Source: a virus. From it: a stretch of DNA of 62,895 bases. The notes under the pieces were generated by a model. It was not told the DNA's origin and did no database searches. It saw only the letters and a list, made by a program, of their open reading frames with translations. The first letter of the stretch is position 1; each line of letters opens with the position of its first letter. This document shows positions 1,623 through 56,687 of the stretch, in pieces. Location: the IMG/VR virus record IMGVR_UViG_3300014656_000029; one strand, written 5' to 3'. The position numbers and the translations under genes are program-made.

Positions 1623-3010
1623 GTATCTAACTCTTTAGATATCTCTTTCAATATAGCAATAAATTCTTTTTCTTTTCCTTTTACCATAAACGAGTTATAC
1701 ATAGGAATATCAGCAAGCTCTTTAGTACACTTATTTTCTATATTATTTGCTATTTTTAAAATAGCGTCAGCCAGCATCATTCCTTGCCACGGGAGAGGTT
1801 TAGCTGTTTCTATTCTTAATTTGAGTGCGTGTTTTGCTATCTCTTCGGAGTAAGCAATAACATCCTCTACTGTTTTTACTTCGTAGCCTTCTAAGTGTAA
1901 ATTAGATAAGTTCCATAAATCAGATTGGTGCTTAAGTTCTTTTTTAAGCGTAATATACGAAGCCTCCATCCAATTTTTAGTGCTACCTTCTTCTGAGTCA
2001 AAACCTAAAAGAACAACAGGGCTTCCACCTAAAATAATACCCAAACTAAACGCCGTACAGTCTAATGATACTCCTGCGTCAAAAGAAAACTGCTCTTGTA
2101 AAGTATTAAAAATCCAATCTTTATACACGGAACGTAGCGGAGCAAAAGTAAATGTTTTGAGGAAAGGAAGCTTCTGTAATTTAGGGTACGCAGCGATAGG
2201 TGAAACTAAAGAAGTTTCTTTTATATCATTAGGTTTAAATTTAGTTAATACTTTTTTATTTCTATCTGCACTGATTACAAAATGTGGTTTAATGCCTGCT
2301 TCTATAACTTCCCCAAAAGACTCTTCCGTACAGATAAAGATTATACGTTCTTCCATTCCTTTAAAATTAGTAATATGTTCTTTCAAAGATTCCCCGCAGG
2401 AACAGACAACTACAGGTTTTTTAAAGCATAGATTATGTAAGCCATTTATATCGGGGTTTTGTGTGTGCTTAGGTAAATTTCTAAGAACATTTTCTGCTTC
2501 TTCTTTTAACAAGGATTGTACTTCTTGTCTCATAGAGTTTAAAAGTATATTAATTCTTCTTTGTAGTGTTTCGGCAAATTCCGTAAACGCTTCTTTAAAG
2601 TATGTGGTCCAGTTTGGAGCGGCATATACAGCTATCCCACAATTAGCATCTAATACGTAAGCGGCTTCAAACTGTGTTATAAATACATTTAAATTACTAG
2701 AAATATACACTTTCTCGTTTCTAAATAGATCATCCCTTTCAGGAACGCACATTGCAAAAATATCATCTGTGGGTTCGTATATAAAAAGTTTATCAATATC
2801 TGGGTGCAGTTTTAAAATAGCCTCTGCGGTGTACCCAAAATCGTGACCAAACAAAACAACATATTTTGTAGGGTTAGTTGTTTTGTTTTGTTTTATATAG
2901 TTATAACAGAATTTTACGGGGTCCACAAAATCCTGTATAGGATTACCGTTTACTGATAAAATGTAAGCCCCTGATTTAGCTTTTACTTTTGTTAATTCAA
3001 CAGACTCCAT
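1598..3010 (-). CDS. Maf/DUF115-like (motility accessory factor, MptE-like) putative nonulosonic-acid glycosyltransferase, paralog A
   Basis: Motifs FGHDFGYT..IYEP, SSNLNV, VVCSCGESL (compare CSAGPSL in paralog B), PHFVIS, LLGFDSE. Likely start is the ATG at 3010, preceded by AAAGGA; the track start at 3040 is a TTG. Confidence 0.5.
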   Translation of the reverse strand: MESVELTKVKAKSGAYILSVNGNPIQDFVDPVKFCYNYIKQNKTTNPTKYVVLFGHDFGYTAEAILKLHPDIDKLFIYEPTDDIFAMCVPERDDLFRNEKVYISSNLNVFITQFEAAYVLDANCGIAVYAAPNWTTYFKEAFTEFAETLQRRINILLNSMRQEVQSLLKEEAENVLRNLPKHTQNPDINGLHNLCFKKPVVVCSCGESLKEHITNFKGMEERIIFICTEESFGEVIEAGIKPHFVISADRNKKVLTKFKPNDIKETSLVSPIAAYPKLQKLPFLKTFTFAPLRSVYKDWIFNTLQEQFSFDAGVSLDCTAFSLGIILGGSPVVLLGFDSEEGSTKNWMEASYITLKKELKHQSDLWNLSNLHLEGYEVKTVEDVIAYSEEIAKHALKLRIETAKPLPWQGMMLADAILKIANNIENKCTKELADIPMYNSFMVKGKEKEFIAILKEISKELDTYLVANEK

Positions 3011-3143
3011 ATTTATAACATCCTTTATTATTAGGTTCAATTACTAAAAAACGTTATTTAATAATATAGGAAGTATTAAAAAAAGACAAGTAAAAAATTA
3101 TACTCGCTAACTAATTAACCTTTTGTATAAAAGGAGTATCATA

Positions 3144-4730
3144 ATGGCACTCGTAAAACCTCTCATAATTTCTGCGGAAGGATTTCCGCGCGAAGCTGCT
3201 TCTTCTACTGACTACTTGCTATTACAAGGAGGTTTAGTTGTAAGCTCTACAGCAGTAGTTAGTTTTGCTGGTGCTCGTTTACGTAGTGTTGGTGCGCCTA
3301 CTTCTGGCGGTGACGCTACAAATAAAACCTATGTTGATAACGTGGCATCTAACATTAAATGGACTAACCCTGCCCAGGTACTTAAAGTAATAGGCGATAC
3401 AAAAATAACTGCTCCGGGTACTCCTGTTTCTGGAGACGCTTGGGTACTTAGTGGTGCAGGTGTGGGGGCTTGGGCTGCTTGGGGAACTGGAGATATCGTT
3501 GAATACAATGGCTTACTTATTGGTTGGAAGCTAGTGTTATCTGCTGGTGATTACATTAATGATTCTACAAGAGTAGTAGTAAAAAGTACTAGTGGTGCAG
3601 GGTCTTTTGCTGGAGAAGAAAATAATATCTTACAGTGGACAGGTTCTGCTTGGGAAGTTGTAGTTAGTGCTGAAGATGGAAGAGCATTGCTAATAATTGG
3701 TAGCGACAGTATTTATGAGAACATAGGTTACGTTTACGATTCAGAGGGGGGTTCTACAGGTTGGGTTCAATTTACCGGTGCTGGACAAATAGTTGCAGGC
3801 GACGGTATGACTAAAGTTGGAAATACTTTAAATGTAGGTGGGGGAGCGGGTATTACTGTAAGCGCAGACGGGTTATATGTTAATGCCGGTGATGGTTTAA
3901 GTATAGATGGTATTAACTATGTTGTTGTTGTTGCCGATTCTGGTATCTCTGTAGGTGCGGGTGGTGTAGCTGTAAATGCTGGTAGCGGTATTGATTTTAA
4001 CGCTAGCGGTGCTGTTATGGTTGTTGCCGATTCTGGTATCTCTGTAGGTGCTGGCGGTGTAGCTGTAAATGCTGGTAGCGGTATTGATTTTGCTAGTGGT
4101 GCTGTTATTGTAGATACTGTAGGTAATGGTTTAGCGGCTACAGCTGCCGGTTTACATCTTATTGCTGGTACAGCTATAGATTTAAATGCAAGTGGTATTT
4201 CAGTTAAATATGATGATGTCACCTTAGGTATTAGTTCTGATGCCTTGACCGTTGTAGGTGTTCCTAGTAACTTTGAAATCAATGGTGTTGCAGTAGGAAA
4301 TACTGTTACTGCTGCTAACTTAGATACTTTAACAGATGGAAGTAATGCCGATCTTCTTCATTCACATAGCGGTATGTATCTAACATTATCTTCCGCCGAA
4401 GCTATTTCTAAAGGAGATCCTGTTTATGTACAGACTACTGATTTAGTTGGTCAAGGATGTGCTGCTTCTGGTAATATGTCCAGAATTATAGGTCTTGCTC
4501 TTACTGCTGCGGCTTCTAATGCCGCTTGTATTATAGTTAACAATGGTAGTATTGTTAGATCTTGTGTTACAGGGGCAACATATAATGCTCCATATTATTT
4601 AAATGCTGCTACCGCAGGTATTACAGCAACAATTCCAGCTGCTGCTGGTAGTAGGCTAATAATGGTAGGATATGCAATTAACACATCTGACATTTGTGTC
4701 CAGCTACGCGATTACGGACAGAAACTTTAA
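3144..4730 (+). CDS. Gly/Ala/Ser/Thr-rich fiber-like structural protein with internal tandem repeats (tail fiber or other surface fiber)
   Basis: SD AAGGAG 8 nt upstream of the ATG at 3144. Repeated VVVADSGISVGAGGVAVNAGSGIDF(N)ASGAV units. Beta-helix-like composition. Confidence 0.6.
   Translation: MALVKPLIISAEGFPREAASSTDYLLLQGGLVVSSTAVVSFAGARLRSVGAPTSGGDATNKTYVDNVASNIKWTNPAQVLKVIGDTKITAPGTPVSGDAWVLSGAGVGAWAAWGTGDIVEYNGLLIGWKLVLSAGDYINDSTRVVVKSTSGAGSFAGEENNILQWTGSAWEVVVSAEDGRALLIIGSDSIYENIGYVYDSEGGSTGWVQFTGAGQIVAGDGMTKVGNTLNVGGGAGITVSADGLYVNAGDGLSIDGINYVVVVADSGISVGAGGVAVNAGSGIDFNASGAVMVVADSGISVGAGGVAVNAGSGIDFASGAVIVDTVGNGLAATAAGLHLIAGTAIDLNASGISVKYDDVTLGISSDALTVVGVPSNFEINGVAVGNTVTAANLDTLTDGSNADLLHSHSGMYLTLSSAEAISKGDPVYVQTTDLVGQGCAASGNMSRIIGLALTAAASNAACIIVNNGSIVRSCVTGATYNAPYYLNAATAGITATIPAAAGSRLIMVGYAINTSDICVQLRDYGQKL
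3927..4110 (+). repeat. about 90-nt direct tandem repeat (2 copies) inside the fiber gene
   Basis: gttgttgccgattctggtatctctgtaggtgc..gctgtaaatgctggtagcggtattgatttt occurs twice in succession with few substitutions. Confidence 0.7.
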
Positions 4731-4815
4731 TTAAAACTAATACAAATATAAGTAAGGGGGGTTTTTGTTGAAAAAAATTTAAAATTGTTATATACTTCTG
4801 TAATAAGGAGTCGCT

Positions 4816-6474
4816 ATGACTACAGTAGGTTTAGAAGTAAAAGAAGCAGTTAGAACAAAAGATTTCTATTTCGTTATAGATGGAATTCCCATACAAAACC
4901 CTGAAGACCCTAAGGGGGAAACGCTAAAAGGTATTATGACAGCGGAACCTAAAGCTCCAGATAGTATAAAAATATTTATAATATTTGGTTTAGACTTTGG
5001 TTATACTATAGAAGCTACGAGAATGGTATATCCCAATTCTGTCATATTCTGCTATGAGCCAAGCGATCTTATTGTAGAAGAAGTAATGAGTAGGCGAGGT
5101 AAAGATTTAATGAAGATACCCAATCTGCTAATAACTTCCAATTTGAATGTATTAGTAAAAAGAATACATGATAAATATGGAAGTAGTGAGGCAGCTTATA
5201 TACTACCTTTGGACAAATGGGAAAAAATGTTTCCAAAGGAATTTGAAGAATTTTTAGAAAAGGTACAACGTATAGTTTTAACAAGAATGATGAGCAGAGT
5301 AACTAAAGAGATAAGATATAAACCTTGGGTAGATAATTTTCTTTTGAACTTACCTTTTTACCTTAATAGTAGTAATCATGGAGGAAAATTAATTAATTGT
5401 ATCCCCCCTAATACTCCCGTTATCATTTGTTCCGCAGGACCTTCCCTAAGTAAAAACGTAGAGCTATTAAAAGGGCTAGAAGATAAAGTAGTTATTGTTG
5501 CTGTGAACACTGCTTATCAATCCTTGAGGCATTATGGCATAGAGCCCCACATTGTAGCCTCTATAGAATCAGTGGACGGTTCCTCTATGCTCTCGGACTT
5601 TGAGAGCTTAAATACTACCTTAATGGCCCCTCTTGTTGTGCATCCTAATATGTTGAAGCTCCCCTTCAAGCAAAAAATTCTGTTTTCTAATTTTCCTTCT
5701 TTCTATTCTTCCTTGTTCAAATCTTTAGGGGAGAATGTTATGCTAGAACTAGGAGGGAGTGTCGCTTGTGCTGCTTTCGCTATAGGGTTTATGTTAGGTA
5801 GTTCTAATATCATATTAATAGGGCAGGATTTAGCTTTTGAAGATAAGGAAGAAATTGATTATTATTCAGAAGGAAGTAAATACAACAGCAAAAAAACAAT
5901 TATTGATAAACAAAAAAATCTAATTTACATTCCTTTTAAAAAAGAGATAGCTAAAGAAGATCCGCAGTTTCAATATTTGGGGGACGAAATACCAGATTAC
6001 GCAGCACTACCTTTAAAATATACAAAGGGATGGAATGGCGGAGATGAAAAAGTACCTACGCATAATCACTTTTTGTTCTTTATTAACTGGTTTGAATCTG
6101 CTTCTTTTAATCTTAGTAAAAGTAAAAATTTGTTTAACTGTACAGAGGGAGGAGCTTACTTAGAAGGCTTTATACACAAAACGCTACAAGAATCTTTAGA
6201 ACTGTGTCATGTTAATAAACTTAAGGACCATCATTTAAATAGTATTTTAGGATCGTTAGAAGCAAATCCATCTCTTAAAAAAACATTCAAAGAATATGCT
6301 GCTAATTTAATACATATGCTTAATGATGAGAAAACAACTATTGTAGAGCTAGAAAAGTATTCTGAATTATTTAATGCCTATACTATTGCTTGTAAAAATA
6401 ACAAAAGAGAAATGGTGGAAAAGTTTAAGGAATTTAAATCAAGATTTATACAAATGTATGAAGAGTTAAATTAG
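4816..6474 (+). CDS. Maf/DUF115-like putative glycosyltransferase, paralog B
   Basis: SD AAGGAG before the ATG. Motifs FGLDFGYT..CYEP, SNLNV, ICSAGPSL, PHIVAS, KLPF, LIGQDLAF. Clear paralog of 1598..3010. Confidence 0.55.
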   Translation: MTTVGLEVKEAVRTKDFYFVIDGIPIQNPEDPKGETLKGIMTAEPKAPDSIKIFIIFGLDFGYTIEATRMVYPNSVIFCYEPSDLIVEEVMSRRGKDLMKIPNLLITSNLNVLVKRIHDKYGSSEAAYILPLDKWEKMFPKEFEEFLEKVQRIVLTRMMSRVTKEIRYKPWVDNFLLNLPFYLNSSNHGGKLINCIPPNTPVIICSAGPSLSKNVELLKGLEDKVVIVAVNTAYQSLRHYGIEPHIVASIESVDGSSMLSDFESLNTTLMAPLVVHPNMLKLPFKQKILFSNFPSFYSSLFKSLGENVMLELGGSVACAAFAIGFMLGSSNIILIGQDLAFEDKEEIDYYSEGSKYNSKKTIIDKQKNLIYIPFKKEIAKEDPQFQYLGDEIPDYAALPLKYTKGWNGGDEKVPTHNHFLFFINWFESASFNLSKSKNLFNCTEGGAYLEGFIHKTLQESLELCHVNKLKDHHLNSILGSLEANPSLKKTFKEYAANLIHMLNDEKTTIVELEKYSELFNAYTIACKNNKREMVEKFKEFKSRFIQMYEELN

Positions 6475-7820: not shown

Positions 7821-8180
7821 CTATTCTATTTCTTCCCACGAACCCTCTGTATTACGTCCTTCTACCTTTATGTTATTGGGAGACATAGATTCCTCTACGC
7901 GCTGTTCTAAACTTTTTCCAGTATCTATTTCTTTTACTTGTTCTGCTAGCCACATTCTAAACCTAGCAGTCTTTACAAGCTTATGAAGGGCCAGTTTCTT
8001 ATTCATGTATTGGCTGCGTTCAGTACGGCTTTCTGCTGCTGCTCCAGAGGGGTTATGAATAATCCTGACACCGCTGTCCGTCTTGTTCTGTTTCTGGCCA
8101 CCTTTACCGCCTGCTCTAAAAGTTTGAACAGTAAAGTCATCTTTATATATAGTAAAAAGTTTTTCCTTCTCTTTTGCCAT
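7821..8180 (-). CDS. arfB: ArfB-like peptidyl-tRNA hydrolase (class I release factor GGQ domain)
   Basis: FRAGGKGGQKQNKTDSGVRIIH..ESRTERSQ..NKKLA motif. SD AAAGGAGGAG upstream of the ATG. Confidence 0.8.
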   Translation of the reverse strand: MAKEKEKLFTIYKDDFTVQTFRAGGKGGQKQNKTDSGVRIIHNPSGAAAESRTERSQYMNKKLALHKLVKTARFRMWLAEQVKEIDTGKSLEQRVEESMSPNNIKVEGRNTEGSWEEIE

Positions 8181-9211
8181 TACTCCTCCTTTAATATATT
8201 ATAAAAAGCGGACCACTCAGGATAACCATTATGGAAAGTAACAAAAATGTTTCCCTCAGACATATTGGAAAAAGTAGGATATCCCCCATTGTACCATTGG
8301 AAATCACCTTCGGGTAATTCAAGCTCAATACAATCTTTCCATGTTTTACCCCCATCTTTACTAATGGATATAAAGCACACAGAACTTTTATCGGGGTTTA
8401 CTTTTCTGTAACCAAATAATAAATTACCTTTAGGTGTTACATGCAGACAGGGTGTGGTTCCTCGGATGCCCATGTTTTTAGGCTTAGTCCAAAATTTACC
8501 TTCTGTGGTAGAAAAAGAAATGTAGAAGGGGTGTTTTCTGTGGTTCTTATCCCTATCCATAAAATTGTCTTTGTATCCTCTAATTACAGATACAAGTGAT
8601 CCATCAGGAAGCAAAACAGTAGAGGTTTCGTCTCCTTGATTTTTAGTTATTGTATAATAGTTTTCCCACGAAATTTCTGTTTTACTTTCAGAATACAGTG
8701 TCTGAACTTGCCAATTTCCTATACCAAAGTTATTGCAAGAGCCGCACACAGTTAGCATTAAGTAGTCTTCAAATTCTATAATTTTACCGTAAGGAAATGT
8801 TTCTATCATGGAAGAAACTAAAATGTCTACATTTTTCCACGTATATCCGTTGTCTTCCGACACAGCAGTACACATGTTTATGTGTCTGTTTATTTCGCCC
8901 TTTTTAATAAAATAACCATCTACAAAAGGCATTACCAATGTCCCATCTTTCAGACAAGTAATAGTGGTACTTGCTTCAATACCTCCCCTTTTGTACATTG
9001 ACTTAAATGAATATTCTCCCAGCTCCCATGTTTTCCCCGCGTCTTTAGACCTATAGTAGTAAACACCTTCATCCTCTGACAGGTCACAGGAGTTATGGCA
9101 AGAAACTAGTATATCCCCATTGGAACAAATTACATTTCCGGGAACCATAGCAGGAATAAACATTTTTCCTATAACACCCTTGCTTACAACGGCCATTCTA
9201 TTATTACTCAT
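8180..9211 (-). CDS. BNR/Asp-box repeat protein, sialidase (GH33)-like
   Basis: Three Asp-boxes: SKDAGKTW, SEDNGYTW, SKDGGKTW. The canonical FRIP arginine was not seen (MFIP instead). Confidence 0.6.
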   Translation of the reverse strand: MSNNRMAVVSKGVIGKMFIPAMVPGNVICSNGDILVSCHNSCDLSEDEGVYYYRSKDAGKTWELGEYSFKSMYKRGGIEASTTITCLKDGTLVMPFVDGYFIKKGEINRHINMCTAVSEDNGYTWKNVDILVSSMIETFPYGKIIEFEDYLMLTVCGSCNNFGIGNWQVQTLYSESKTEISWENYYTITKNQGDETSTVLLPDGSLVSVIRGYKDNFMDRDKNHRKHPFYISFSTTEGKFWTKPKNMGIRGTTPCLHVTPKGNLLFGYRKVNPDKSSVCFISISKDGGKTWKDCIELELPEGDFQWYNGGYPTFSNMSEGNIFVTFHNGYPEWSAFYNILKEE

Positions 9212-28201: not shown

Positions 28202-29497
28202 ATGATTATAACGTACCTGTCTTTAAGAAAGAAGGTTTTTTTGAAAATACTGTTAGTTTATCCTCCTATATTTAGATCCGCCAATATTTACAGCACAACG
28301 CTTCCGCTTGGGTTGTTGCATGTTGCTACCTATTTACAAAATGAAGGAAATTCTGTAAGAGTATTAAATTTAGAAAATGGCGGAGAAATAAAAACAGTAT
28401 CTATAAAGGATCTTAGAACAGCTTACGCTGCTAACGATCCTAAACAATATGTGTTTAATGAGGAGTCTTCATACAGACAAGAATTTAAAAAAGCTGTTTT
28501 GGATTTTCAACCAGACTTAATAGGATTCTCTGTGGCAACAGAACAAATAGATGCGGCAAATGAAATGGCAAAAGATGCTAAAAAAATGTTTCCTAACGTT
28601 AAAATAGAAATGGGTAACATAAGAATTTCGCCTTCTGATTGGGTAAAGCAAGTATCTGCTGCGGCTTTAATGATAGAACCTGATTTAAGCTTCTTAGAAG
28701 GACAGAACACCGCAGAGAGTTTTGGTTCTGTAATGACCAGCATAGGCTGTCCTTTTTCTTGTGTGTACTGTGGAAGCCCCCAGCAATACAAGCGCAAGAT
28801 AACATATTTTGAAGAGGATTCCGTTAGAAGAAGATTACGTAACGGTAAAAATATGGGAGCAAAAGGATTCTATTTACTAGACGATACCATTACAATCAAC
28901 ATTAAAAGAGCGGAAAAAATAGCAGACATACTTTCTGAGTTTAATATGCCTTGGAGAATTCAAACTAGAGTTGAAAGTTTAGTAAATAATCTACATCTTA
29001 TTTCATATTTTAAAGATCGCGGTTGTGTTCAGATGAGCTTCGGCGTAGAAAGTGGCTCTACCAGAATCAGAAAACTGATGAAAAAGAATTTGAAAATAGA
29101 CGATGTATTAAAAGGAGTAGAGCTGCTGCGCCAGCATGATATGCCTTATACAGCAAATTTTATGATAGGCTTCCCTTCTGAAACAAATGATGATGTGGAT
29201 GACTCTATGGCTGTAATAAAAGCCATGAAACCAGAACGTATTTCTTGTGCTTCTATGGTTCCTTACCACGGAACAGAATTATACATTAAAAATCCTAAAT
29301 TTGTAGAAGCTGCAAACAACTGGAATTTCTGTCAATGGTCTCCATTCAACCCTACTTTTTTAACCGATAAAGAAGGCAACAGAATAGACGGACCTTCTTT
29401 TGATAAGATAAATCAAATATATGAAATGGTTGAAAACATTAATGATCACGTTTCTAGTAAAAAAACATTTAGTACTGTATTGAGTAATAGAAAATAG
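28202..29497 (+). CDS. B12-binding (class B) radical SAM enzyme
   Basis: N-terminal Rossmann-like B12-binding region (KILLVYPP...LPLGLLHVATYL) and a CPFSCVYC (Cx3Cx2C) cluster motif. Confidence 0.75.
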   Translation: MIITYLSLRKKVFLKILLVYPPIFRSANIYSTTLPLGLLHVATYLQNEGNSVRVLNLENGGEIKTVSIKDLRTAYAANDPKQYVFNEESSYRQEFKKAVLDFQPDLIGFSVATEQIDAANEMAKDAKKMFPNVKIEMGNIRISPSDWVKQVSAAALMIEPDLSFLEGQNTAESFGSVMTSIGCPFSCVYCGSPQQYKRKITYFEEDSVRRRLRNGKNMGAKGFYLLDDTITINIKRAEKIADILSEFNMPWRIQTRVESLVNNLHLISYFKDRGCVQMSFGVESGSTRIRKLMKKNLKIDDVLKGVELLRQHDMPYTANFMIGFPSETNDDVDDSMAVIKAMKPERISCASMVPYHGTELYIKNPKFVEAANNWNFCQWSPFNPTFLTDKEGNRIDGPSFDKINQIYEMVENINDHVSSKKTFSTVLSNRK

Positions 29498-45604: not shown

Positions 45605-45762
45605 TTTTGATTTACTTTCAATTTAATTAGTAATGCCTATATTTTTCTGTTTGAACGCTGCAAGCATTATTTTCTCGCTATTGTTTTTAAATTCCATTTA
45701 AATCTCCTCTAGCAGCAATATACCTCAATTAAAACCCTTATGTCAAGATTTTTTTATTTCAG

Positions 45763-45835
45763 CCCCTCGGGTTGGTTCCGCCCCAACGACACCGCGATTT
45801 TCAGTCGCGTGCTCTACTACCTGAGCTACCGAGGG
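45763..45835 (-). tRNA. tRNA-Phe(GAA), atypical T-loop
   Basis: Acceptor CCCTCGG/CCGAGGG, D-arm GCTCAGGTAGTAGAGC, anticodon arm CGCGA-CTGAAAA-TCGCG. The T-loop reads GGCGGAA, which is non-canonical. Confidence 0.55.
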
Positions 45836-45842
45836 AAAATTG

Positions 45843-45925
45843 TGAACGGAGAGGGATTCGAACCCTCGAAGGACTACCGAGAGATTAAAAGTCTCTTGCC
45901 TTTGACCTGACTTGGCTATCCGTTC
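45843..45925 (-). tRNA. tRNA with Ser-like type II scaffold (12-nt variable arm) but anticodon loop CTTTTAA (UUU)
   Basis: Acceptor GAACGGA/TCCGTTC, D-arm GCC-AAGTCAGGTCAAA-GGC, T-arm GAGGG-TTCGAAT-CCCTC, discriminator A. Confidence 0.5.
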
Positions 45926-45929
45926 AAGA

Positions 45930-47036
45930 TTAATACGCAATTTTTCTTTCACTACAGTGCCGCTTAAGCGTTTTTAAAGCTACTCCAATGATATCTGCAA
46001 CTTCATAAAGGGGTTTACTTTGCACTAATTTTTGTAATTCTGTAGAGGATGGCCATGTTACTTTCTTTCCTCTACTCCAGTGTCCCGCAGGGGGAGTTTC
46101 AATATTATATTTTTTACACCAATACCTTACTGTTTCTGTATTTACCGAAAAATCTCTTGCAATTTTAGGTATGGATTTTTCCCAAATAAGTTTTTTCAAA
46201 TCTTCTTTAGAGGGCCACAGGATATTACCCTTATGCGTGTCAGGATACTTTTTATTTTTAGATTTAGTTTTAGCCCAATATCCTCTAGGAGGCTTTTCTA
46301 TTCCGTGCTTCTTGCAACGTTTTTCTATAGCTTTACTAGAAACACCTAACTGCTTTGCTAATTGTACTGTGGACATTTCCCAAACTAATTTTTCTAACTC
46401 CTCGTTAGAGGGCCACTTAGCATCGTAATGTTCTGTGTTTTTACAACTAGTAGAACAGTATTTTCTAGTGCTTCGGCCTGTGGGGTAAAACACTTTTTTA
46501 CACACAGGACAAATAATTTCTTCTTTTTTACGACAATGGTCTCTAGTGTGTGTAGACTTGTCAGTAATTTTTAAATTAAGAGAAACATTATTACTCCGAT
46601 CCTCATCTTTGTGGTGAACTAATTCTGTTTCCTCTAAATATCTTCCTAAAACATTTTCCATAACAAGGCGGTGTACGTACACACTACCATTAACCCACGA
46701 ACGGGGATGGTTAGGGATGTACCCAGCAAGATATCCATTAACATTAAAAATAGGTATATTATCAATATCATGTTTTTGAAAAGGAGAATTTAATTTTTGT
46801 TTCTTCTCGCACTCCTTGTGTTCTCTTTTTCCATTCTTATATTCTACTGTAGTTAAAGTTAAGTCCTTATTACATATAGAACATTTTAATGTAACGGTTC
46901 TAGGTTTGGGAATATAATACTTCTTTACTCTTTCTCTATTGTATTCCTTATAACACAGTTCGCATCTGTTTCTTGCATATATTCCTTTTTTACCACAATA
47001 CATACAATATCTTTCCTCTTTTGTTTTTCTGGGCAT
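45930..47036 (-). CDS. HNH homing endonuclease with triplicated C-terminal DNA-binding module
   Basis: VHRLVMENVLG...VHHKDEDRSNN...H HNH motif. Three copies of WPSxEELxKLVWExS..LAKxLGVSxKAIEKRCKKHGIEKPPRGYW. The start is probably the ATG at 47036 (GGAG SD); the track start at 47102 would overlap a tRNA. Confidence 0.75.
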   Translation of the reverse strand: MPRKTKEERYCMYCGKKGIYARNRCELCYKEYNRERVKKYYIPKPRTVTLKCSICNKDLTLTTVEYKNGKREHKECEKKQKLNSPFQKHDIDNIPIFNVNGYLAGYIPNHPRSWVNGSVYVHRLVMENVLGRYLEETELVHHKDEDRSNNVSLNLKITDKSTHTRDHCRKKEEIICPVCKKVFYPTGRSTRKYCSTSCKNTEHYDAKWPSNEELEKLVWEMSTVQLAKQLGVSSKAIEKRCKKHGIEKPPRGYWAKTKSKNKKYPDTHKGNILWPSKEDLKKLIWEKSIPKIARDFSVNTETVRYWCKKYNIETPPAGHWSRGKKVTWPSSTELQKLVQSKPLYEVADIIGVALKTLKRHCSERKIAY

Positions 47037-47124
47037 TACGTATTCTCCACGAATATTAAAGTGCTCATAAACACTATATGTTAAAGAAATAAGTAAAGTC
47101 AACTATTATTTTTAGTAGCCACGG

Positions 47125-47198
47125 TGCCTCTAACAGAAGTCGAATCTGTAATCCTCCAATTTTAAGTCGAAGAGCGATACCAATTTGCTTATAGAGGC
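47125..47198 (-). tRNA. tRNA with anticodon UAA (Leu-type anticodon) on a type I (5-nt variable arm) scaffold
   Basis: Acceptor GCCTCTA/TAGAGGC, anticodon arm TTCGA-CTTAAAA-TTGGA, variable GGATT, T-arm ACAGA-TTCGACT-TCTGT. Confidence 0.55.
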
Positions 47199-47199
47199 G

Positions 47200-47287
47200 T
47201 GGTGCCCAAAGTGAGACTCGAACTCACACGCCTAGCTAAGGCAGTGGCTTTTGAAACCACCTTGTCTACCAATTCCAGCATTTGGGC
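47200..47287 (-). tRNA. tRNA-Leu(CAA), type II, CCA encoded
   Basis: Acceptor GCCCAAA/TTTGGGC, loop TTCAAAA, 16-nt variable arm, T-arm GTGAG-TTCGAGT-CTCAC, 3' ACCA. Confidence 0.75.
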
Positions 47288-47290
47288 ATG

Positions 47291-48079
47291 TTATATTTTT
47301 CCTGCTCTTTTCTTATTCCAATATCCTCTTGGAGGTTTTTGGATTCCGTACTTCTTACAACGCTTCTCTACAGCCTTATCAGAAACTCCAAGTTTCTTAG
47401 CTAACTGTACTGTAGACATCTCCCACACAAGTTTCTCTAGTTTCTCTTTAGTGGGCCAGTCTATTTTTTCTCTTGATTCTTTAGCACATTCTGTTGAGCA
47501 GTATTTACTTTTTTTATTTTGTGTTTTAAACGTATTGTCACAAACTAAACATATCTTTGTAAAAGTATTCTTACTTTTTCTCATTCTACAGGTGTACTTA
47601 TTTTTTCTTTTGCGCTTCTTAGTCTTTCTGTCTAACATATGCATAATGGTATGACAGTTTGGGCAAAGGATCTGGAGATTACATAATCTATTATCAATAT
47701 TATTTCCGTTTTTATGATGTAACTCTAAGGGAATACAATAGTGTAACCATTTTGTTTTATGGCACTTCTCACAAATATTTTCCTTTAACCCATAATATAC
47801 TATTTTTTCTCTTACTTTAGAGGATTTTATAAGAGACTCTTGGGTTAAATGGAGCTTTATAAATTCCTCTTTTGAAAGTTTAGGTCCAAGGGATGTTTCC
47901 TTATGTATCCCCTGTCCTTTAAAATATGAAATATCTATACCGTAATATACTATTAGTTTCTTAATACGTCTATAGTTTCCGCCAGAAGGAGTCAAGCCTA
48001 AAGCTATTAAGGTGCTGCGTATAGATAAAGTTTCTTTTACTGCATTCTCTAATATTTCTTTTGTGTACTTTGTGTTCAT
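47291..48079 (-). CDS. HNH homing endonuclease
   Basis: N-terminal KYTKEILENAVKE domain; CEKCH...HHKNGNNIDN...CPNCH HNH/zinc motif; C-terminal WPTKEKLEKLVWEMS...KPPRGYW module. Confidence 0.75.
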   Translation of the reverse strand: MNTKYTKEILENAVKETLSIRSTLIALGLTPSGGNYRRIKKLIVYYGIDISYFKGQGIHKETSLGPKLSKEEFIKLHLTQESLIKSSKVREKIVYYGLKENICEKCHKTKWLHYCIPLELHHKNGNNIDNRLCNLQILCPNCHTIMHMLDRKTKKRKRKNKYTCRMRKSKNTFTKICLVCDNTFKTQNKKSKYCSTECAKESREKIDWPTKEKLEKLVWEMSTVQLAKKLGVSDKAVEKRCKKYGIQKPPRGYWNKKRAGKI

Positions 48080-48123
48080 AACACTACTAATAGTGATATA
48101 TATCATACTTGTCAAATATAACT

Positions 48124-48200
48124 TGGTGCCTCTGAGAGAACTCGAATCTCCAACGTCCTGAGCCTAAATCAGGTCCCTCTACCAATTGGGGTACAGAGGC
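48124..48200 (-). tRNA. tRNA with anticodon UAG (Leu-type anticodon) on a type I scaffold, CCA encoded
   Basis: Acceptor GCCTCTG/CAGAGGC, anticodon arm CCTGA-TTTAGGC-TCAGG, variable ACGTT, T-loop TTCGAGT. Confidence 0.55.
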
Positions 48201-48205
48201 GTGTG

Positions 48206-48291
48206 TGTCCAAAGGGAGGGTCGAACTCCCACGCCCATCAAGGGCACTAGAACCTCAATCTAGTGTGTCTACCAAATTCCACCACTTGGAC
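48206..48291 (-). tRNA. tRNA-Leu(GAG), type II
   Basis: Acceptor GTCCAAG/TTTGGAC, anticodon arm CTAGA-TTGAGGT-TCTAG, 16-nt variable arm, T-arm GGGAG-TTCGACC-CTCCC. Confidence 0.75.
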
Positions 48292-48346
48292 ATTAAATTA
48301 TTTAAAGAACTTTACCTAATAGCTGGGGGTACAACTACATTTATTT

Positions 48347-48775
48347 TTATCTAAGTCTAAGTCCTTTGGTAATATGAACGGAATTTGGTTTATCGGGATC
48401 ATCTAAGTAAAACATTACACCATAGGGATATGTGCCTTTATACCAAACAGTCTCATCATCACCAAACCTTGTTACGCGATGTGTAAACCCTTTATCTACC
48501 AAATAGGATTTAATTTCTGAAAGAAATTCATCCTTAGTAACACCCTTACGGAGATCAATGTCTACAAAGTAAGAATTAGGGGGATTATAATATTCTAAAT
48601 CCGGGTGATCTACTTTTACAACATCTACCCATTGTTTCATGGTATCTATTACTTCGTCTCTAAGTGTAGTGAACTCATCGTCCTGTATTATGTTTTCTAC
48701 CTGAGCTAATGCCAATTTAGGATCAGAGGATATAAGTTTTATTACATCTTTCAATTTATTTTTTAAATTTAACAT
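48347..48775 (-). CDS. hypothetical protein
   Basis: 142 aa, lying between tRNA and HNH genes. Confidence 0.45.
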   Translation of the reverse strand: MLNLKNKLKDVIKLISSDPKLALAQVENIIQDDEFTTLRDEVIDTMKQWVDVVKVDHPDLEYYNPPNSYFVDIDLRKGVTKDEFLSEIKSYLVDKGFTHRVTRFGDDETVWYKGTYPYGVMFYLDDPDKPNSVHITKGLRLR

Positions 48776-48856
48776 ATTTAAATCTCCTTATACATTATAG
48801 TAAATAATATAATTTAGGAGGTAGTAGACGCCACGCATCCACGCAAAGGACATTTT

Positions 48857-49051
48857 TCAGAAATCTAATTTTTCGGCTTGTTTATTGAGCCACGCTATTT
48901 TTCTTTTTAGCAGGTTTGCCGCTTCAGCATCCTCTGCTTTCTTTTTAAGAACTTCTTCTGGAACAACATTATCGCTAGGAGTATCTTCTGATTTTTCTAC
49001 TTCTGAATCATTATGTTCTTTGGGTTTAAATTCTATAATTTTTCCTTCCAT
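48857..49051 (-). CDS. hypothetical small acidic protein
   Basis: 64 aa. Confidence 0.35.
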   Translation of the reverse strand: MEGKIIEFKPKEHNDSEVEKSEDTPSDNVVPEEVLKKKAEDAEAANLLKRKIAWLNKQAEKLDF

Positions 49052-49089
49052 AATACACTCCTATTTTTTATTCTAAATAGAATTTTTAG

Positions 49090-49162
49090 TAGGGACTACC
49101 CGGATCGAACGGGCGACAACTGCCGTGTAAAGACAGGGCTCTACCAACTGAGCTAAGTCCCT
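49090..49162 (-). tRNA. tRNA-Val(TAC)
   Basis: Acceptor AGGGACT/AGTCCCT, anticodon arm CTGTC-TTTACAC-GGCAG, T-arm GCCCG-TTCGATC-CGGGT. Confidence 0.7.
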
Positions 49163-49170
49163 AAAAAACG

Positions 49171-49250
49171 TACCAACAGGGTTAGATTCGAACTAACCGC
49201 CCACCCCCGACTCCGGAGGCAGCTCTCACCACTGAGCTTACACGTCGGTA
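49171..49250 (-). pseudogene. degenerate tRNA-like element
   Basis: Good D-arm (AGCT-CAGTGGTGAG-AGCT) and T-arm (GTTAG-TTCGAAT-CTAAC), but extra nucleotides at the junctions and no canonical anticodon arm. Confidence 0.4.
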
Positions 49251-49390
49251 CTAAGTATGCTTTTACCCTTTTTCCTTAAACAGGTAGTGCTATGATCACT
49301 TGCACTACTGCGGATTTTAGGGTTCCAACACAATACAAAATAGATAGTAGCATAACTATATGTTAAAGTAAAGAACAAAAAACATCCATG

Positions 49391-49460
49391 TGACTAGATT
49401 CGAACTGGAACTGACCCGACACTACCTCGGCGCTCTACCGCTTGGAGCTACACACGGATG
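49391..49460 (-). pseudogene. degenerate tRNA-like element
   Basis: Acceptor CCGTGTG/CACATGG and D-arm GCTC-CAAGCGGTA-GAGC are recognisable. The anticodon stem and T-stem are mispaired. Confidence 0.35.
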
Positions 49461-49543
49461 CACAACACTTTACCGTCAAAATTAATAAATTTTTAACTGC
49501 CCTCATACTTATAGTTAATAAACATAAAAGGGAGGTGTTGCGG

Positions 49544-49616
49544 AGCGGGTGACGGGTGACGATCCCGCAACAATTAGATTGGAAATCTAAGGCTCTACCA
49601 GTTGAGCTACACCCGC
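49544..49616 (-). tRNA. tRNA-Gly(TCC)
   Basis: Acceptor GCGGGTG/CACCCGC, anticodon arm TTAGA-TTTCCAA-TCTAA. The T-loop is atypical (ATCGTCA). Confidence 0.6.
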
Positions 49617-49623
49617 AAAAGTG

Positions 49624-50163
49624 TTATTTACTATATATTTTTTTGGTCCAGTAACCTCTAGGCGGCTTTTCTATTCCATATTTTTTGCATCTTTTCTCCA
49701 CAGCTTTATCTGATACACCTAACTCTTTAGCAATATGTGTTGTGGGATTTTTCCACACAAGTATTTCTAAATCTTCTTTCGTAGGCCATACAGTTTTTTC
49801 CTTATGTTTATAGCTGCATTCTGTAGAACAGTACACCCTTAGATTACTGTGGGGGTAGAAACTTTTGTTACAGCCGGGACACACAATACTCCCAACAAAT
49901 CCTCCCTTATGTAAAGCAGAATGTTCGGAGGCAGTCATTAATTCTAAATTATAAGGATCATTATTTAGTTTATCTGCATCTTTATGGTGGACTTGCTCTC
50001 CATTATTTAAATATCTACAAATTTTATTCTCCATTACCAGTCGATGTATTCTAACACAGCCATTATGTTTTGCATTAGGATGTTCAGGATAGTAACAATA
50101 TAAATATCCTTTATCGTCAATTAACGTGCTTTTTAAATACTTTGCTGTATGGGAGCAAAACAT
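49624..50163 (-). CDS. HNH homing endonuclease (short form)
   Basis: IHRLVMEN...VHHKDADKLNN...H motif plus one C-terminal WPTKEDLEILVWK...KPPRGYW module. Confidence 0.75.
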   Translation of the reverse strand: MFCSHTAKYLKSTLIDDKGYLYCYYPEHPNAKHNGCVRIHRLVMENKICRYLNNGEQVHHKDADKLNNDPYNLELMTASEHSALHKGGFVGSIVCPGCNKSFYPHSNLRVYCSTECSYKHKEKTVWPTKEDLEILVWKNPTTHIAKELGVSDKAVEKRCKKYGIEKPPRGYWTKKIYSK

Positions 50164-50195
50164 ACAATTACCTCATGTAATAAAAAAGATAACAA

Positions 50196-50270
50196 AGAGA
50201 ACCAGATTCGAACTGATAATCGCTAAACTATGGCACCGCTACGCTAAAGTGCCTTCAAAGTAGGGAGCCG
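50196..50270 (-). pseudogene. tRNA 3'-fragment-like remnant (T-arm only)
   Basis: ATCAG-TTCGAAT-CTGGT T-arm with no pairing 5' acceptor strand. Confidence 0.3.
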
Positions 50271-50304
50271 ACTTACCTAATTAGTCGCACCCCAATGTTA
50301 TCTG

Positions 50305-50377
50305 AGCGGGATACGAGGCTCGAACTCGTAACATCAACCTCGGCAAGGTTGCACTCTACCAATTGAGTTAATCCCGC
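50305..50377 (-). tRNA. tRNA-Gly(GCC)
   Basis: Acceptor GCGGGAT/ATCCCGC, anticodon arm CAACC-TTGCCGA-GGTTG, T-arm ACGAG-TTCGAGC-CTCGT. Confidence 0.8.
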
Positions 50378-50394
50378 GAATTTAACGCTTACTC

Positions 50395-50548
50395 CAATAC
50401 CCATGGGGTGGTAATTTAATAGCATATTCTTTACATTGTTTCCACCGTGTACCACCAAACCAAGATCTCTAAGAACATCACTTCTGGTTATATTTTCTTT
50501 AACTGCTTTTTCTAGTATTTCTTTTGTATATTTTTTTGAAGTAACCAT
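50395..50548 (-). pseudogene. truncated HNH-endonuclease N-terminal domain fragment running into tRNA-Gly
   Basis: MVTSKKYTKEILEKAVKENITRSDVLRDLGLVVHGGNNVKNML matches the N-terminus of the 47291..48079 HNH. The reading frame continues straight into the tRNA sequence. Confidence 0.4.
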
Positions 50549-50592
50549 ACTAAAAGTGTATAATACAAAATTACAAAATGTCAAACATATTA

Positions 50593-50667
50593 TGGTGGAC
50601 AGAACGTGACTCGAACACGCACGTAATACCTTGCAAAGGTATCTTTCTCCCATTGAATTACCTGCCC
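50593..50667 (-). tRNA. tRNA-Ala(TGC), second copy, CCA encoded
   Basis: Acceptor GGGCAGG/TCTGTCC with G3:U70, anticodon arm ATACC-TTTGCAA-GGTAT, 3' ACCA. Confidence 0.7.
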
Positions 50668-51001
50668 AAATCAAAAAGTAGAAAGGAAAAGGTTTTTGGC
50701 TGCAAGGACTTCAACCTTGGTACGACCTAAAAGTAACCAAAACTATTTAGAACTACTACTAGGGCCAAACTTGCAACGTTTGTCTACTTAGCATTCCTAA
50801 ACAATAAACGGTTGCTTTCGCTTGTCGTGTCTTTTACATGTTAAACGACAACCTACTAACCCTGACCTACCTGTACTATTAATATTATGCGCTGTAACAG
50901 GTTATAGGTCCTAAAGCAAGCGGTGTAAAAACTTGCTTCTGTTCCAACTACAAATTCATTCTACCTTAATTAAAAAAACAATTCAAGTAAAAAATAACTG
51001 G

Positions 51002-51076
51002 TGGGGTGACATATCGGGATTGAACCGACATCTACTTGGGCCACAACCAAGGGCTCTACATTAAGCTAATGTCACC
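51002..51076 (-). tRNA. tRNA-His(GTG) with encoded G-1, CCA encoded
   Basis: Extra 5' G opposite C73, anticodon arm CTTGG-TTGTGGC-CCAAG, T-loop TTCAATC. Confidence 0.7.
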
Positions 51077-51282
51077 ATAAAACACATCTAGTTCTATTAA
51101 GTTGTCAAAGATCGAACTGTAAAGGATTACTTGATAGTTGGGTTTAATACCATAAATAATGTAACAAAAACAGGGTAGTTTTTGTTACAAATTCGGTCTA
51201 AGGTTTTTAAAATTTCCTTAGTGTTTTCTTCAGATTACTTATGTTTTTTATTTATAGTAGGGGGTCTGAAGAAAACTTAAAC

Positions 51283-52402: not shown

Positions 52403-53491
52403 ATGAACATTGCGCTTGTACACAACCTCTGCCCATCATCCAGATCAAATGATGATGACCAACCTCCCTCGGAACCGGATCCTTGTAAAAATTCTGACCT
52501 TTATGCAGAATGGGATGACCCCCAAACAATTTCAGCAGTAGCGGAAGCCTTAAGCGCAAAGCATACTGTTACTTTAATTGATGCAGATTTAGATGCTTAT
52601 TCTAAATTACGATATTTAAAACCAGATTTAGTTTTCAATATGGCAGAGGGTTTATATGGAGCTGGAAGAGAAGCCCAGATACCTGCAATGCTTGATATGC
52701 TATCTATTCCTTATACAGGAAGTGATCCCGTTACTTTAGGTATCTGTTTAGACAAGCAGAGAACAAAAGAAATATTATCGTGGCATAAAATACCTACGCC
52801 TAAATTTTATGTTGTTTCCGCTATAAAAGATTTACCACAAAGACCACATTATCCACTTATGGTAAAACCTTTGTTTGAAGGATCTTCTAAAGGTATTACA
52901 AATAAGTCTTTAGTTTTTAATAGGGTAGAATTAAAAAGACAGGTAGAATTTGTTTTCTCTAATTACGGAGAGAGTGTTTTAATTGAAGAATTTTTACCGG
53001 GGAGAGAATTTACAGTAGCTCTCTTGGGTAACGGTTCCTCTCTTACAGTGTTACCTATCGTAGAATTAGATTTTAAAGTTTTACCTTTGGGTGCTTTACC
53101 TATTTATTCCTATGAGGCTAAATGGGAATGGGACAAAGAAGAGGACCCTTTGCAAATTTTTAGTTGTCCCGCTGTGTTAAATGATATACTGGAAAAGAAA
53201 ATTGCAGACATGTGTATCCATACATTTAATGTTTTTAAATGTAGAGACTGGTGTAGGATAGATGTTCGCTTGGACGAGCAGGGAACACCAAACATAATAG
53301 AGTTAAATCCTCTTCCCGGAATACTACCTCGCCCCGAACAAAATAGTTGTTTCCCAAAGGCAGCAAGAGCGGCTGGTTTAAACTATACAGATATGATTCT
53401 AAGTGTAGTTAATGCTGCTCAGAGTAGAATGAATTTAAAGCAAGAAAAAATAGAAGCTGCTTGGACTAATAAAGCGGGTCAGGCAATTTAG
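52403..53491 (+). CDS. ddl: ATP-grasp enzyme, D-alanine--D-alanine ligase family
   Basis: AAGGAG SD. Ddl-like N-domain (DLVFNMAEGLYGAGREAQIPAMLDMLSIPYTGSDP), central KHTV/KPLFEGSSKGI segment, C-terminal ATP-grasp region. Confidence 0.75.
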   Translation: MNIALVHNLCPSSRSNDDDQPPSEPDPCKNSDLYAEWDDPQTISAVAEALSAKHTVTLIDADLDAYSKLRYLKPDLVFNMAEGLYGAGREAQIPAMLDMLSIPYTGSDPVTLGICLDKQRTKEILSWHKIPTPKFYVVSAIKDLPQRPHYPLMVKPLFEGSSKGITNKSLVFNRVELKRQVEFVFSNYGESVLIEEFLPGREFTVALLGNGSSLTVLPIVELDFKVLPLGALPIYSYEAKWEWDKEEDPLQIFSCPAVLNDILEKKIADMCIHTFNVFKCRDWCRIDVRLDEQGTPNIIELNPLPGILPRPEQNSCFPKAARAAGLNYTDMILSVVNAAQSRMNLKQEKIEAAWTNKAGQAI

Positions 53492-56597: not shown

Positions 56598-56604
56598 AAG
56601 ATAG

Positions 56605-56687
56605 AGACTACGGTGGGATTTGAACCCACGAGGTTTTCACCCAACGGTTTTGCAGACCGCATCCTTAAACCACTCGGACACGTAGTC
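56605..56687 (-). tRNA. tRNA with anticodon GCA (Cys) and U73, but Ser/Tyr-like D-arm and 14-nt variable arm
   Basis: Acceptor GACTACG/CGTAGTC, D-arm TCC-GAGTGGTTTAA-GGA, anticodon arm GCGGT-CTGCAAA-ACCGT, T-arm GTGGG-TTCAAAT-CCCAC. Confidence 0.5.

Follow-up and report, generated by a model that had tools for sequence, protein, structure and literature searches.

This analysis concerns a transfer RNA (tRNA) gene array and the three HNH endonuclease genes that lie within it, here named HNH-A, HNH-B and HNH-C, on the minus strand of positions 45762–51075 in the IMG/VR virus record IMGVR_UViG_3300014656_000029; the window is the whole 62,895-nucleotide (nt) stretch of that record. The original prediction, made from the letters alone, had described the region as a tRNA island interleaved with homing-type HNH genes and holding remnants of both kinds of gene, a description that our results support. 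The window is AT-rich (GC ~35%) and is contained in a 121-kb metagenomic contig (ENA ERZ27247128 k141_1754741), and the same genes are present at the locus on a Logan contig of SRR6514274. ARAGORN called 21 tRNA genes in the whole window, every one on the minus strand, and for the 11 in the array (45762–51075) ARAGORN and Rfam were concordant, with scores of 45–64 bits against the Rfam tRNA model RF00005, the gathering score of which is 29 bits. Read along the minus strand, the first half of the array comprises tRNA-His, a weak tRNA-like stretch (R1), tRNA-Ala(UGC), a nuclease relic, tRNA-Gly(GCC), the tRNA relic R2, HNH-C, tRNA-Gly(UCC), the putative tRNA pseudogenes R3 and R4 and tRNA-Val, and the second half comprises two open reading frames (ORFs) without known function, tRNA-Leu(GAG), a UAG tRNA, HNH-B, tRNA-Leu(CAA), a UAA tRNA, HNH-A, a UUU tRNA and tRNA-Phe. 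The three nuclease genes, with their predicted domains, are as follows.

45930–47036, minus strand: HNH-A, 368 amino acids (aa), with N-terminal CxxC pairs, an HNH_3 nuclease domain, a zinc ribbon and three tandem modules (Pfam HNH_3 32.4 bits, RWP-RK 38 bits)
47291–48079, minus strand: HNH-B, 262 aa, with an N-terminal helix-turn-helix-like domain, a Cys4-type HNH, a zinc ribbon and one KPPRGYW module (family alignment; PHROG 10822)
49624–50163, minus strand: HNH-C, 179 aa, with an I-HmuI-like HNH_3 nuclease domain, a zinc ribbon and one helix-turn-helix module ending in KPPRGYW (Pfam HNH_3 42.8 bits)

That three HNH endonuclease genes alternate with tRNAs was confirmed by Pfam, PHROG and conserved residues, and nuclease activity of all three products is predicted from these residues. 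HNH-A, the start codon of which was placed from the homologue P0065, and HNH-C both exceed the Pfam HNH_3 (PF13392) cut-off of 24.8 bits, share a VHHKD...NN...NL...H motif, are 51% identical over 162 aa (BLASTP, E 3e-51) and match PHROG 15471 (‘HNH endonuclease’) over nearly their full length (E 1.9e-32 for HNH-C). An AlphaFold2 model of HNH-C (predicted local distance difference test score 89.8) gave I-HmuI (1u3e) as its top Foldseek match in the PDB, with probability 1.0 and E 0.017 over 80 columns, and a whole-protein TM-score of 0.30 that is low as the nuclease domain alone aligns; the C-terminus of the model is similar to Fis/NarL-type helix-turn-helix domains. By sequence and modelled fold, HNH-A and HNH-C are thus assigned to the I-HmuI-like HNH_3 group. 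HNH-B matches a different family over nearly its full length, PHROG 10822 (‘HNH endonuclease’, E 2.1e-39), and carries the motif CxxC...HH...N...CxxCH, in which C103, C106, H122, N134, C139, C142 and H143 are invariant in 35 relatives. The window protein gave no Pfam HNH match at E ≤ 0.01, and a profile of its family weakly matched, in the PDB, McrA and the HNH part of a maturase from a group II intron (E 0.006–0.03). HNH-B is a Cys4 HNH protein of a lineage separate from that of HNH-A and HNH-C, such that the proposed mutual relationship of the three proteins stands for HNH-A and HNH-C as paralogues, and for the C-terminal module shared by all three, but not for the nuclease domains, which belong to two different lineages. 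A sequence search of solved structures for the nucleases gave nothing decisive, Pfam and PHROG detected no GIY-YIG domain and HNH as the sole type of nuclease domain in the window genes, and no further nuclease genes or module copies were found elsewhere in the window.

Each nuclease ORF lies between two tRNA genes and none lies in an intron or intein, the gaps being 44–140 nt upstream and 3–7 nt downstream. HNH-A and HNH-B start 44–86 nt after the upstream tRNA; in HNH-B the distance is 44 nt with a TTGACA box between, and HNH-A is preceded by a promoter-like TTGACT-18-TATAGT at 47102–47073. For HNH-C, which follows the relic R2, the distance from the last intact tRNA is 140 nt. The stop codons fall 4 nt before tRNA-Lys (HNH-A), 3 nt before tRNA-Leu(CAA) (HNH-B) and 7 nt before tRNA-Gly(UCC) (HNH-C).

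All three proteins end in a CxxC...YCSxxC zinc ribbon followed by a helix-turn-helix of the form WPxKEELEKLVW...GVSDKAVEKRCKKxGIxKPPRGYW, and the distribution originally proposed for this module, three copies in HNH-A and one each in HNH-B and HNH-C, was borne out by BLASTP, hmmsearch and DNA repeats, the third copy in HNH-A being without the PPRGYW tail. The HNH-A modules match HNH-C with E 3e-51, 1e-14 and 2e-5, and the DNA identity between modules is 73–78% over 146 nt. Copy 1 of HNH-A shares 39 of 47 residues with the HNH-B module and 33 of 47 with that of HNH-C, and a metagenomic protein (P0002) combines an HNH-B-type nuclease with the triple-module array of HNH-A, both of which point to exchange of the module between nuclease lineages. 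The module is also found fused to PD-(D/E)XK nucleases, and occurs in 5927 clusters of a representative library of 1.84 billion proteins, with up to six tandem copies. Scores against RWP-RK (PF02042, cut-off 29.3 bits) were 38 bits for the first module of HNH-A, 19.6 for HNH-B and 19.1 for HNH-C; we found no paper linking RWP-RK to homing endonucleases.

We then consider the placement of these genes in other phages. Across ~160 IMG/VR loci, genes of either nuclease lineage and those sharing just the module lay almost always beside tRNA genes; the locus counts given here are not phylogenetically independent and carry no formal genome-wide control, so that the p-values are to be read loosely. 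The HNH-B family has 377 detectable homologues, and in its best 80 IMG/VR loci a tRNA was present within 4 kb in 73 and within 350 nt upstream in 46; half of these upstream tRNAs (23/46) were tRNA-Leu, vs a 16% share among the tRNAs of those loci as a whole (binomial p 9e-8). For the HNH-C family (261 homologues), 30 of 31 full-length loci had a tRNA, in 24 within 350 nt upstream; the upstream tRNA was the sole tRNA in 8 kb in a dozen loci, and in eight of these the gene lay 118–203 nt downstream of a tRNA-Cys, the sequence of which took seven different forms. Loci in which the module is attached to other N-terminal domains had tRNAs in 45 of 49 cases. The ORF began a median of 64 nt after the upstream tRNA (154 loci), the two were on the same strand in 76/89, and the ORF stop was ≤10 nt from, or overlapped, the next tRNA in 30/152 loci. 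Among cultured phages, homologues occur in Pseudomonas jumbo phages and, with a like arrangement, in the Salmonella jumbo phage 7t3, 16 nt after a lone tRNA, and in Stenotrophomonas phage SOVA965, where the gene is annotated ‘HNH homing endonuclease’ and lies 53 nt after a four-tRNA cluster. A search for an empty-site allele beside the tRNA-Cys of locus L173 found only two contigs, both already with the nuclease gene.

The two ORFs of unknown function within the array (48347–49051) are unrelated to the nucleases, and other small ORFs are present in the arrays of other fetched phages too, as might be expected if such arrays were tolerant, non-essential and spacer-rich regions in which nucleases without tRNA-gene specificity passively accumulate. 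We regard this as very improbable, since HNH-C relatives directly follow the sole tRNA within 8 kb in those dozen loci, the median same-strand gap is 64 nt and the stop falls ≤10 nt from the next tRNA in 30 of 152 loci, tRNA-Leu is enriched upstream of HNH-B relatives, and in one case, described below, a cassette lies inside a tRNA gene.

Some HNH-B homologues also carry a tRNA gene within their own coding sequence. In locus L253 a tRNA-Leu (4485–4571, Rfam 50.5 bits) lies antisense inside the homologue ORF at 4001–4810, and the same feature was seen in L198 (3916–3999) and L202 (3906–3992). It occupies the linker between nuclease and zinc ribbon, where it is translated as ‘...GPEGLEPPVAISAAALE...’, and is present in at least five protein clusters (P0020, P0022, P0033, P0038 and P0040).

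The case of a cassette inside a tRNA gene comes from L006 and L007, two phage contigs from different samples whose flanks, around an HNH-B homologue, are 96–99.5% identical. Comparison of L007 7477–7740 with L006 6643–7740 showed an intact tRNA-Arg(UCU) in L007, positions 12–65 of which are replaced in L006 by an 885-bp insert. This insert encodes a PD-(D/E)XK nuclease that ends in the module (‘...KPPRGYWAKQRASS’) and whose stop codon abuts nucleotide 11 of the broken tRNA-Arg. Also within the insert are a promoter-like box, which is duplicated, and a long-armed, divergent tRNA-like gene that shares the UCU anticodon and scores a sub-threshold 27.6 bits against a tRNA model. The comparison shows that module-bearing elements move into tRNA genes, leaving behind tRNA end-fragments and odd tRNAs like those of the window. 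Separately, suppressor-type tRNAs were seen in nuclease-bearing phages, with the anticodon UUA in L006 (13006–13078) and as a ‘tRNA-TERM’ in 7t3 (L254 2395–2476), and L006 also encodes a Ro60/TROVE protein (13889–15391).

With one to three helix-turn-helix modules per protein, and with co-transcription with the tRNAs probable given the same strand and the very short gaps, the proteins might instead act on the tRNA operon or its transcripts, as regulators or RNA-processing factors, rather than as DNA homing enzymes. This seems hardly credible, because the HNH catalytic and zinc-binding residues are conserved in hundreds of relatives, a DNA homing endonuclease is the nearest match among solved structures, the module occurs on DNA nucleases of three folds, and presence/absence variation exists in the form of L006 and L007.

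Relics of both gene kinds accompany the intact genes in the window, and are as follows.

50382–50548, minus strand: internally deleted HNH-B-type endonuclease pseudogene (BLASTP, DNA repeat, hmmsearch, translation/alignment, promoter-like site)
50694–50769, minus strand: R1, weak tRNA-like stretch of doubtful status (ARAGORN at 85% thresholds only; poor cloverleaf; no Rfam match)
~50195–50265, minus strand: R2, tRNA relic with T-arm AGTTCGAATCT and a 3' acceptor-like end kept and the remainder degraded (motif at 50205–50213; poor cloverleaf)
49384–49458, minus strand: R3, putative tRNA pseudogene with the cloverleaf kept, G33 instead of U and T-stem mismatches (Rfam 23.5 bits, below 29; ARAGORN relaxed; T-loop box)
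49172–49248, minus strand: R4, putative tRNA pseudogene with G33 and acceptor-stem mismatches (ARAGORN at 85% thresholds; T-loop box)

The stretch at 50395–50548 had been described as a truncated HNH N-terminal fragment reading straight into tRNA-Gly. Its N-terminal identity holds, in that it matches the N-terminus of HNH-B (47% over 47 aa, BLASTP E 1e-9), but neither the truncation nor the read-through does. About 34 N-terminal codons (50548 to ~50447) are fused out of frame to the last ~19 codons of the module (~50446–50382), and a six-frame profile search recovered the latter at 50446–50382 in a different frame as a module tail, ‘...KQCKEYAIKLPPHGYWSKR*’, which ends in a stop codon of its own, 4 nt short of tRNA-Gly(GCC). 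The pseudogene was recovered by hmmsearch (E 2.7e-5 against profile A3 and 1e-4 against A2) and as DNA repeat D3 (76% over 70 nt), and its leader is as in intact HNH-B: 44 nt separate the pseudogene from tRNA-Ala, and a TTGACA box lies at 50584. With ~620 nt missing and both ends located as in an intact cassette, the relic is the product of an internal deletion, not of a 3' truncation, and the apparent read-through is a frame artefact, because the gene is internally deleted and its own stop lies in the other frame. Decay in place is shown by this deleted gene, which keeps both its ends in position, and by the tRNA relics without U33.

The window contains 21 matches to the T-loop pattern GTTCRANYC (4.9 expected), 20 of them on the minus strand; 17 are in called tRNAs and three in R2, R3 and R4, all of which contain AGTTCGAATCT. 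R2 sits 31 nt upstream of HNH-C. R3 and R4 are best read as pseudogenes, because G33 is present in both and R3 also falls below the Rfam threshold, and R4 looks like a paralogue of R3; a search of phage records with the R3–R4 region gave no match. The several degenerate tRNA-like stretches first reported are hence three real ones (R2, R3 and R4) and a weak fourth candidate (R1), and the earlier total of at least 13 tRNA or tRNA-like genes fits the 11 intact genes plus three. Four window tRNAs are without GTTCRANYC, all of them beside or near HNH genes. The idea that neighbouring tRNAs have lost this box to escape cleavage was rejected, as in 853 tRNAs the box was present in 80.1% of those beside nuclease genes vs 80.5% of those away from them (p 0.91).

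The intact tRNA genes of the array, together with the two ORFs lying among them, are as follows.

51002–51075, minus strand: tRNA-His(GUG), the upstream end of the colonised stretch (ARAGORN; Rfam 56.1 bits)
50593–50667, minus strand: tRNA-Ala(UGC), a divergent second copy with G3:U70 kept (ARAGORN, Rfam)
50304–50377, minus strand: tRNA-Gly(GCC) (ARAGORN; Rfam 63.7 bits)
49542–49616, minus strand: tRNA-Gly(UCC) with the unusual T loop AUCGUCA (ARAGORN, Rfam)
49089–49162, minus strand: tRNA-Val(UAC) (ARAGORN; Rfam 57.8 bits)
48347–49051, minus strand: two ORFs without known function, 64 aa and 142 aa, inside the array (ORF list)
48205–48291, minus strand: tRNA-Leu(GAG) with a normal long-armed type II body (ARAGORN; Rfam 46.6 bits)
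48124–48200, minus strand: tRNA with Leu anticodon UAG, a short-armed type I body and A73, beginning 4 nt after tRNA-Leu(GAG) (ARAGORN; Rfam 54.1 bits)
47200–47287, minus strand: tRNA-Leu(CAA), type II (ARAGORN; Rfam 45 bits)
47123–47198, minus strand: tRNA with Leu anticodon UAA, a type I body and A73, beginning 1 nt after tRNA-Leu(CAA) (ARAGORN; Rfam 48.6 bits)
45842–45925, minus strand: tRNA with Lys anticodon UUU, A73 and a long variable arm (type II-like body) (ARAGORN; Rfam 61.2 bits)
45762–45835, minus strand: tRNA-Phe(GAA) with the unusual T loop GGCGGAA (ARAGORN; Rfam 48 bits)

The two ORFs had no Pfam and no PHROG match. A more canonical tRNA-Ala(UGC) lies elsewhere in the window (11062–11136), and the window tRNA-Gly(UCC) is 84% identical to a tRNA-Gly of L185 that is situated 312 nt after an HNH-C homologue. 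Where the original prediction counted two Leu tRNAs, their presence is confirmed and their number is not, there being four tRNAs with Leu anticodons, two of them with the short type I body; of the several atypical tRNAs that it listed, one is the long-armed Lys(UUU) tRNA, whose body resembles tRNA-Leu and tRNA-Tyr of other viruses.

The two type I Leu tRNAs (UAA and UAG) are well-formed, with a 5-nt variable loop, are 71% identical to one another, and each lie 1–4 nt after a long-armed tRNA-Leu. The window and the first ~85 phage loci retrieved together held 89 tRNAs with Leu anticodons, of which 33 were no longer than 79 nt. The short-armed tRNA-Leu was rejected as a novelty, being annotated tRNA-Leu in many cultured phages (e.g. 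phiEa21-4 and Streptomyces phage Comrade), and we found no paper discussing such genes. A clustering of unusual tRNA bodies beside nuclease genes (18% vs 10%, odds ratio 2.0, p 0.008) was weakened as a candidate signal, since the enrichment of tRNA-Leu confounds it, short-armed Leu tRNAs being frequent. tRNAs with a long variable arm were seen in the window at 45842–45925 and 56604–56687 (both minus strand), and also in L002 (7694–7776), L016 (134–224) and L192 (4569–4650); the arm is often closed by a GAAA-type loop, and the anticodons include those for Lys, Cys, Asn, Ile(UAU), Met, Thr, Gln and others. Where it was read, the discriminator base suits the amino acid of the anticodon (Cys U73, Asn G73, Lys A73, Met A73), and because of this fit these tRNAs look like ordinary isoacceptors with an extra arm rather than mutated Leu or Ser tRNAs. 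Our literature search found nothing on these long-armed tRNAs. A further tRNA-Tyr-like gene of the window (60698–60779, minus strand) has a long arm and a 6-nt anticodon loop, CUGUAA, and is 84% identical to a normal tRNA-Tyr(GUA) of L247, whose loop has the usual 7 nt; the window gene may represent a pseudogene, an odd decoder or an error of assembly.

We consider it probable that HNH-A, HNH-B and HNH-C are free-standing homing endonuclease cassettes that have repeatedly colonised a phage tRNA array, target tRNA-gene DNA and decay in place. Each cassette consists of a promoter-like box and one ORF wedged between two tRNA genes, and two unrelated HNH lineages share the same portable DNA-binding unit, a zinc ribbon plus one to three helix-turn-helix modules, which presumably reads tRNA-gene DNA. 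The proteins would work like T4 SegB, and we infer a target and cut site in tRNA-gene DNA, gene conversion and homing for the window copies. A fixed cassette would no longer be selected and would decay, and imprecise repair and recombination would yield duplicated, divergent and broken tRNA genes. As regards the earlier suggestion of ongoing birth and decay driven by endonuclease mobility, the decay is seen in the deleted HNH-B-type gene and in the relics without U33, and mobility is the likely driver, as backed by the tRNA adjacency and by L006 and L007.

Several observations weigh against this interpretation. The tRNA-adjacent loci that were counted are not phylogenetically independent; the presence/absence case is that of a PD-(D/E)XK nuclease in another phage and not of an HNH gene; and the copies are old, the modules being just 73–78% identical in DNA with no sign of recent movement within the genome. 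No close relative was found, and hence no allele in which the site of HNH-A, HNH-B or HNH-C is empty. The region gave 27 promoter-like matches vs 19.7 ± 4.7 expected from shuffling, which is not a clear excess, and there was no depletion of the T-loop box in nuclease-adjacent tRNAs, which leaves the idea of the T loop as target, or of escape from it, unsupported.

The same genes could alternatively be domesticated, breaks in the array leading to amplification and reshuffling of tRNA segments and thereby to escape from tRNA-cleaving host defences, an adaptive role like that of SegB, which overcomes Septu through amplification of a tRNA-Tyr segment and whose co-location with tRNAs is widespread (PMC13096335). 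The window holds two paralogous units in which a type II Leu tRNA is followed by a type I Leu tRNA and an HNH gene, tRNA-Ala(UGC) is present in two copies, some tRNA bodies are unusual, and all three nuclease ORFs are intact with their catalytic residues. The duplicated units are, however, ~70% identical, so there has been no recent amplification, and one cassette has decayed in place, fitting a selfish cycle; we think domestication unlikely, though it is compatible with the colonisation of the array by homing cassettes, which we favour.

More broadly, the survey suggests that one portable DNA-binding module, carried on several nuclease types, marks a very large group of tRNA-adjacent elements. 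We tentatively raise the further possibility, which we hold to be doubtful, that the zinc ribbon plus KPPRGYW unit is a dedicated reader of tRNA-gene DNA, joined to at least three folds (HNH_3, Cys4-HNH and PD-(D/E)XK) in a very large undescribed superfamily of homing elements targeting tRNA genes. Such elements would track isoacceptor genes (Leu, Cys), could land inside tRNA genes and bring odd replacement tRNAs with the same anticodon, and might be a main driver of unusual phage tRNA bodies (short-armed Leu; long-armed Lys, Cys, Asn, Ile and Met). If the module truly reads tRNA-gene DNA, this would explain mosaic tRNA arrays and would offer programmable nucleases recognising tRNA genes. Phage tRNA genes are now regarded as counter-measures to tRNA-cutting host defences, and because of this their gain, loss and diversification are of current interest; the locus is a compact record of such turnover, with intact cassettes, a gutted cassette and broken tRNA copies together.

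The source is probably a large uncultured phage, as every IMG/VR relative of the nuclease genes that was retrieved sits on a viral contig. Several window ORFs match PHROG families, including RNase H (E 6e-54), and no capsid or terminase genes were found within the window. A blastn search for a close relative against 50,697 phage records gave only tRNA-sized matches, a search for an IMG/VR relative via a flanking 220-aa protein found none, and an exact 25-nt tRNA pattern had no match in IMG/VR. A metagenome scan with the neighbouring Ddl-like gene returned 80 loci, none with even two tRNA genes, which look bacterial and not like relatives of the phage.

The gene used in that scan, a D-Ala-D-Ala-ligase-like ATP-grasp gene (52403–53491, plus strand), adjoins the array; the best-matching relatives from metagenomes (identity up to 66%) lie on bacterial-looking contigs without tRNA arrays, which suggests its capture from a host. 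A full-length DnaJ chaperone gene, with J domain, CXXCXGXG domain and C-terminal domain, lies between tRNA genes at 59041–60195 (plus strand). Further away, an 824-aa ORF at 30021–32495 (plus strand) matches the major vault protein shoulder domain (E 1.6e-25), the vault repeat and the SPFH/Band 7 family, and is unusual for a phage-like contig. Genes at 1598–3040, 4816–6474, 8180–9211, 28202–29497 and 39290–40075 encode two MptE-like (Maf-type) proteins, a BNR/sialidase-like protein, a B12-binding radical SAM protein and a second radical SAM protein, which may form a sugar- or cofactor-modification set.

Turning to known systems, the module resembles RWP-RK (PF02042) in having a helix-turn-helix and a short basic tail, and differs in that the tail here is KPPRGYW. 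The annotation of PHROG 15471 and 10822 is silent on both the tRNA association and the modular C-terminus. I-HmuI, an HNH nicking homing endonuclease of Bacillus phage SPO1 (1u3e), shares with HNH-C the HNH_3-type motif and the arrangement of a nuclease followed by C-terminal DNA-binding helices; only ~80 residues align with HNH-C, at 26% identity, and the zinc ribbon and KPPRGYW module are not in I-HmuI. The I-HmuI gene resides in a group I intron within a gene for DNA polymerase and is not free-standing among tRNA genes. HNH genes are also present in the tRNA clusters of phage T5. In mycobacteriophages, HNH genes interspersed in tRNA clusters have been proposed to diversify the tRNA repertoire (PMC6409571); those accounts are at the level of annotation, and in the literature searched they describe no shared module, isotype preference or relics in place.

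The closest parallel in gene organisation is T4 SegB, likewise a free-standing nuclease gene between the tRNAs of a phage array, which lies in the T4 tRNA cluster, recognises a 27-bp site with the T-psi-C box and is co-inherited with the neighbouring tRNA genes at nearly 100% in T2L crosses (PMC2330249). SegB can amplify tRNA segments to beat a tRNA-cleaving defence, and its co-location with tRNAs is statistically strong across phages (PMC13096335). The principle is therefore already known from SegB and from the HNH genes of mycobacteriophage tRNA clusters, and the window alone is a well-documented and unsurprising case. What the literature searched had not previously described is a common module, its near-exclusive tRNA neighbourhood, which spans three nuclease folds, and a preference for tRNA-Leu in the HNH-B family. 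In contrast to SegB, which is a GIY-YIG enzyme without isotype preference, the window genes encode HNH proteins of two lineages that are not members of the SegB family, their predicted DNA-binding part is a zinc ribbon with the KPPRGYW helix-turn-helix module, and the relatives of HNH-B favour tRNA-Leu neighbours.

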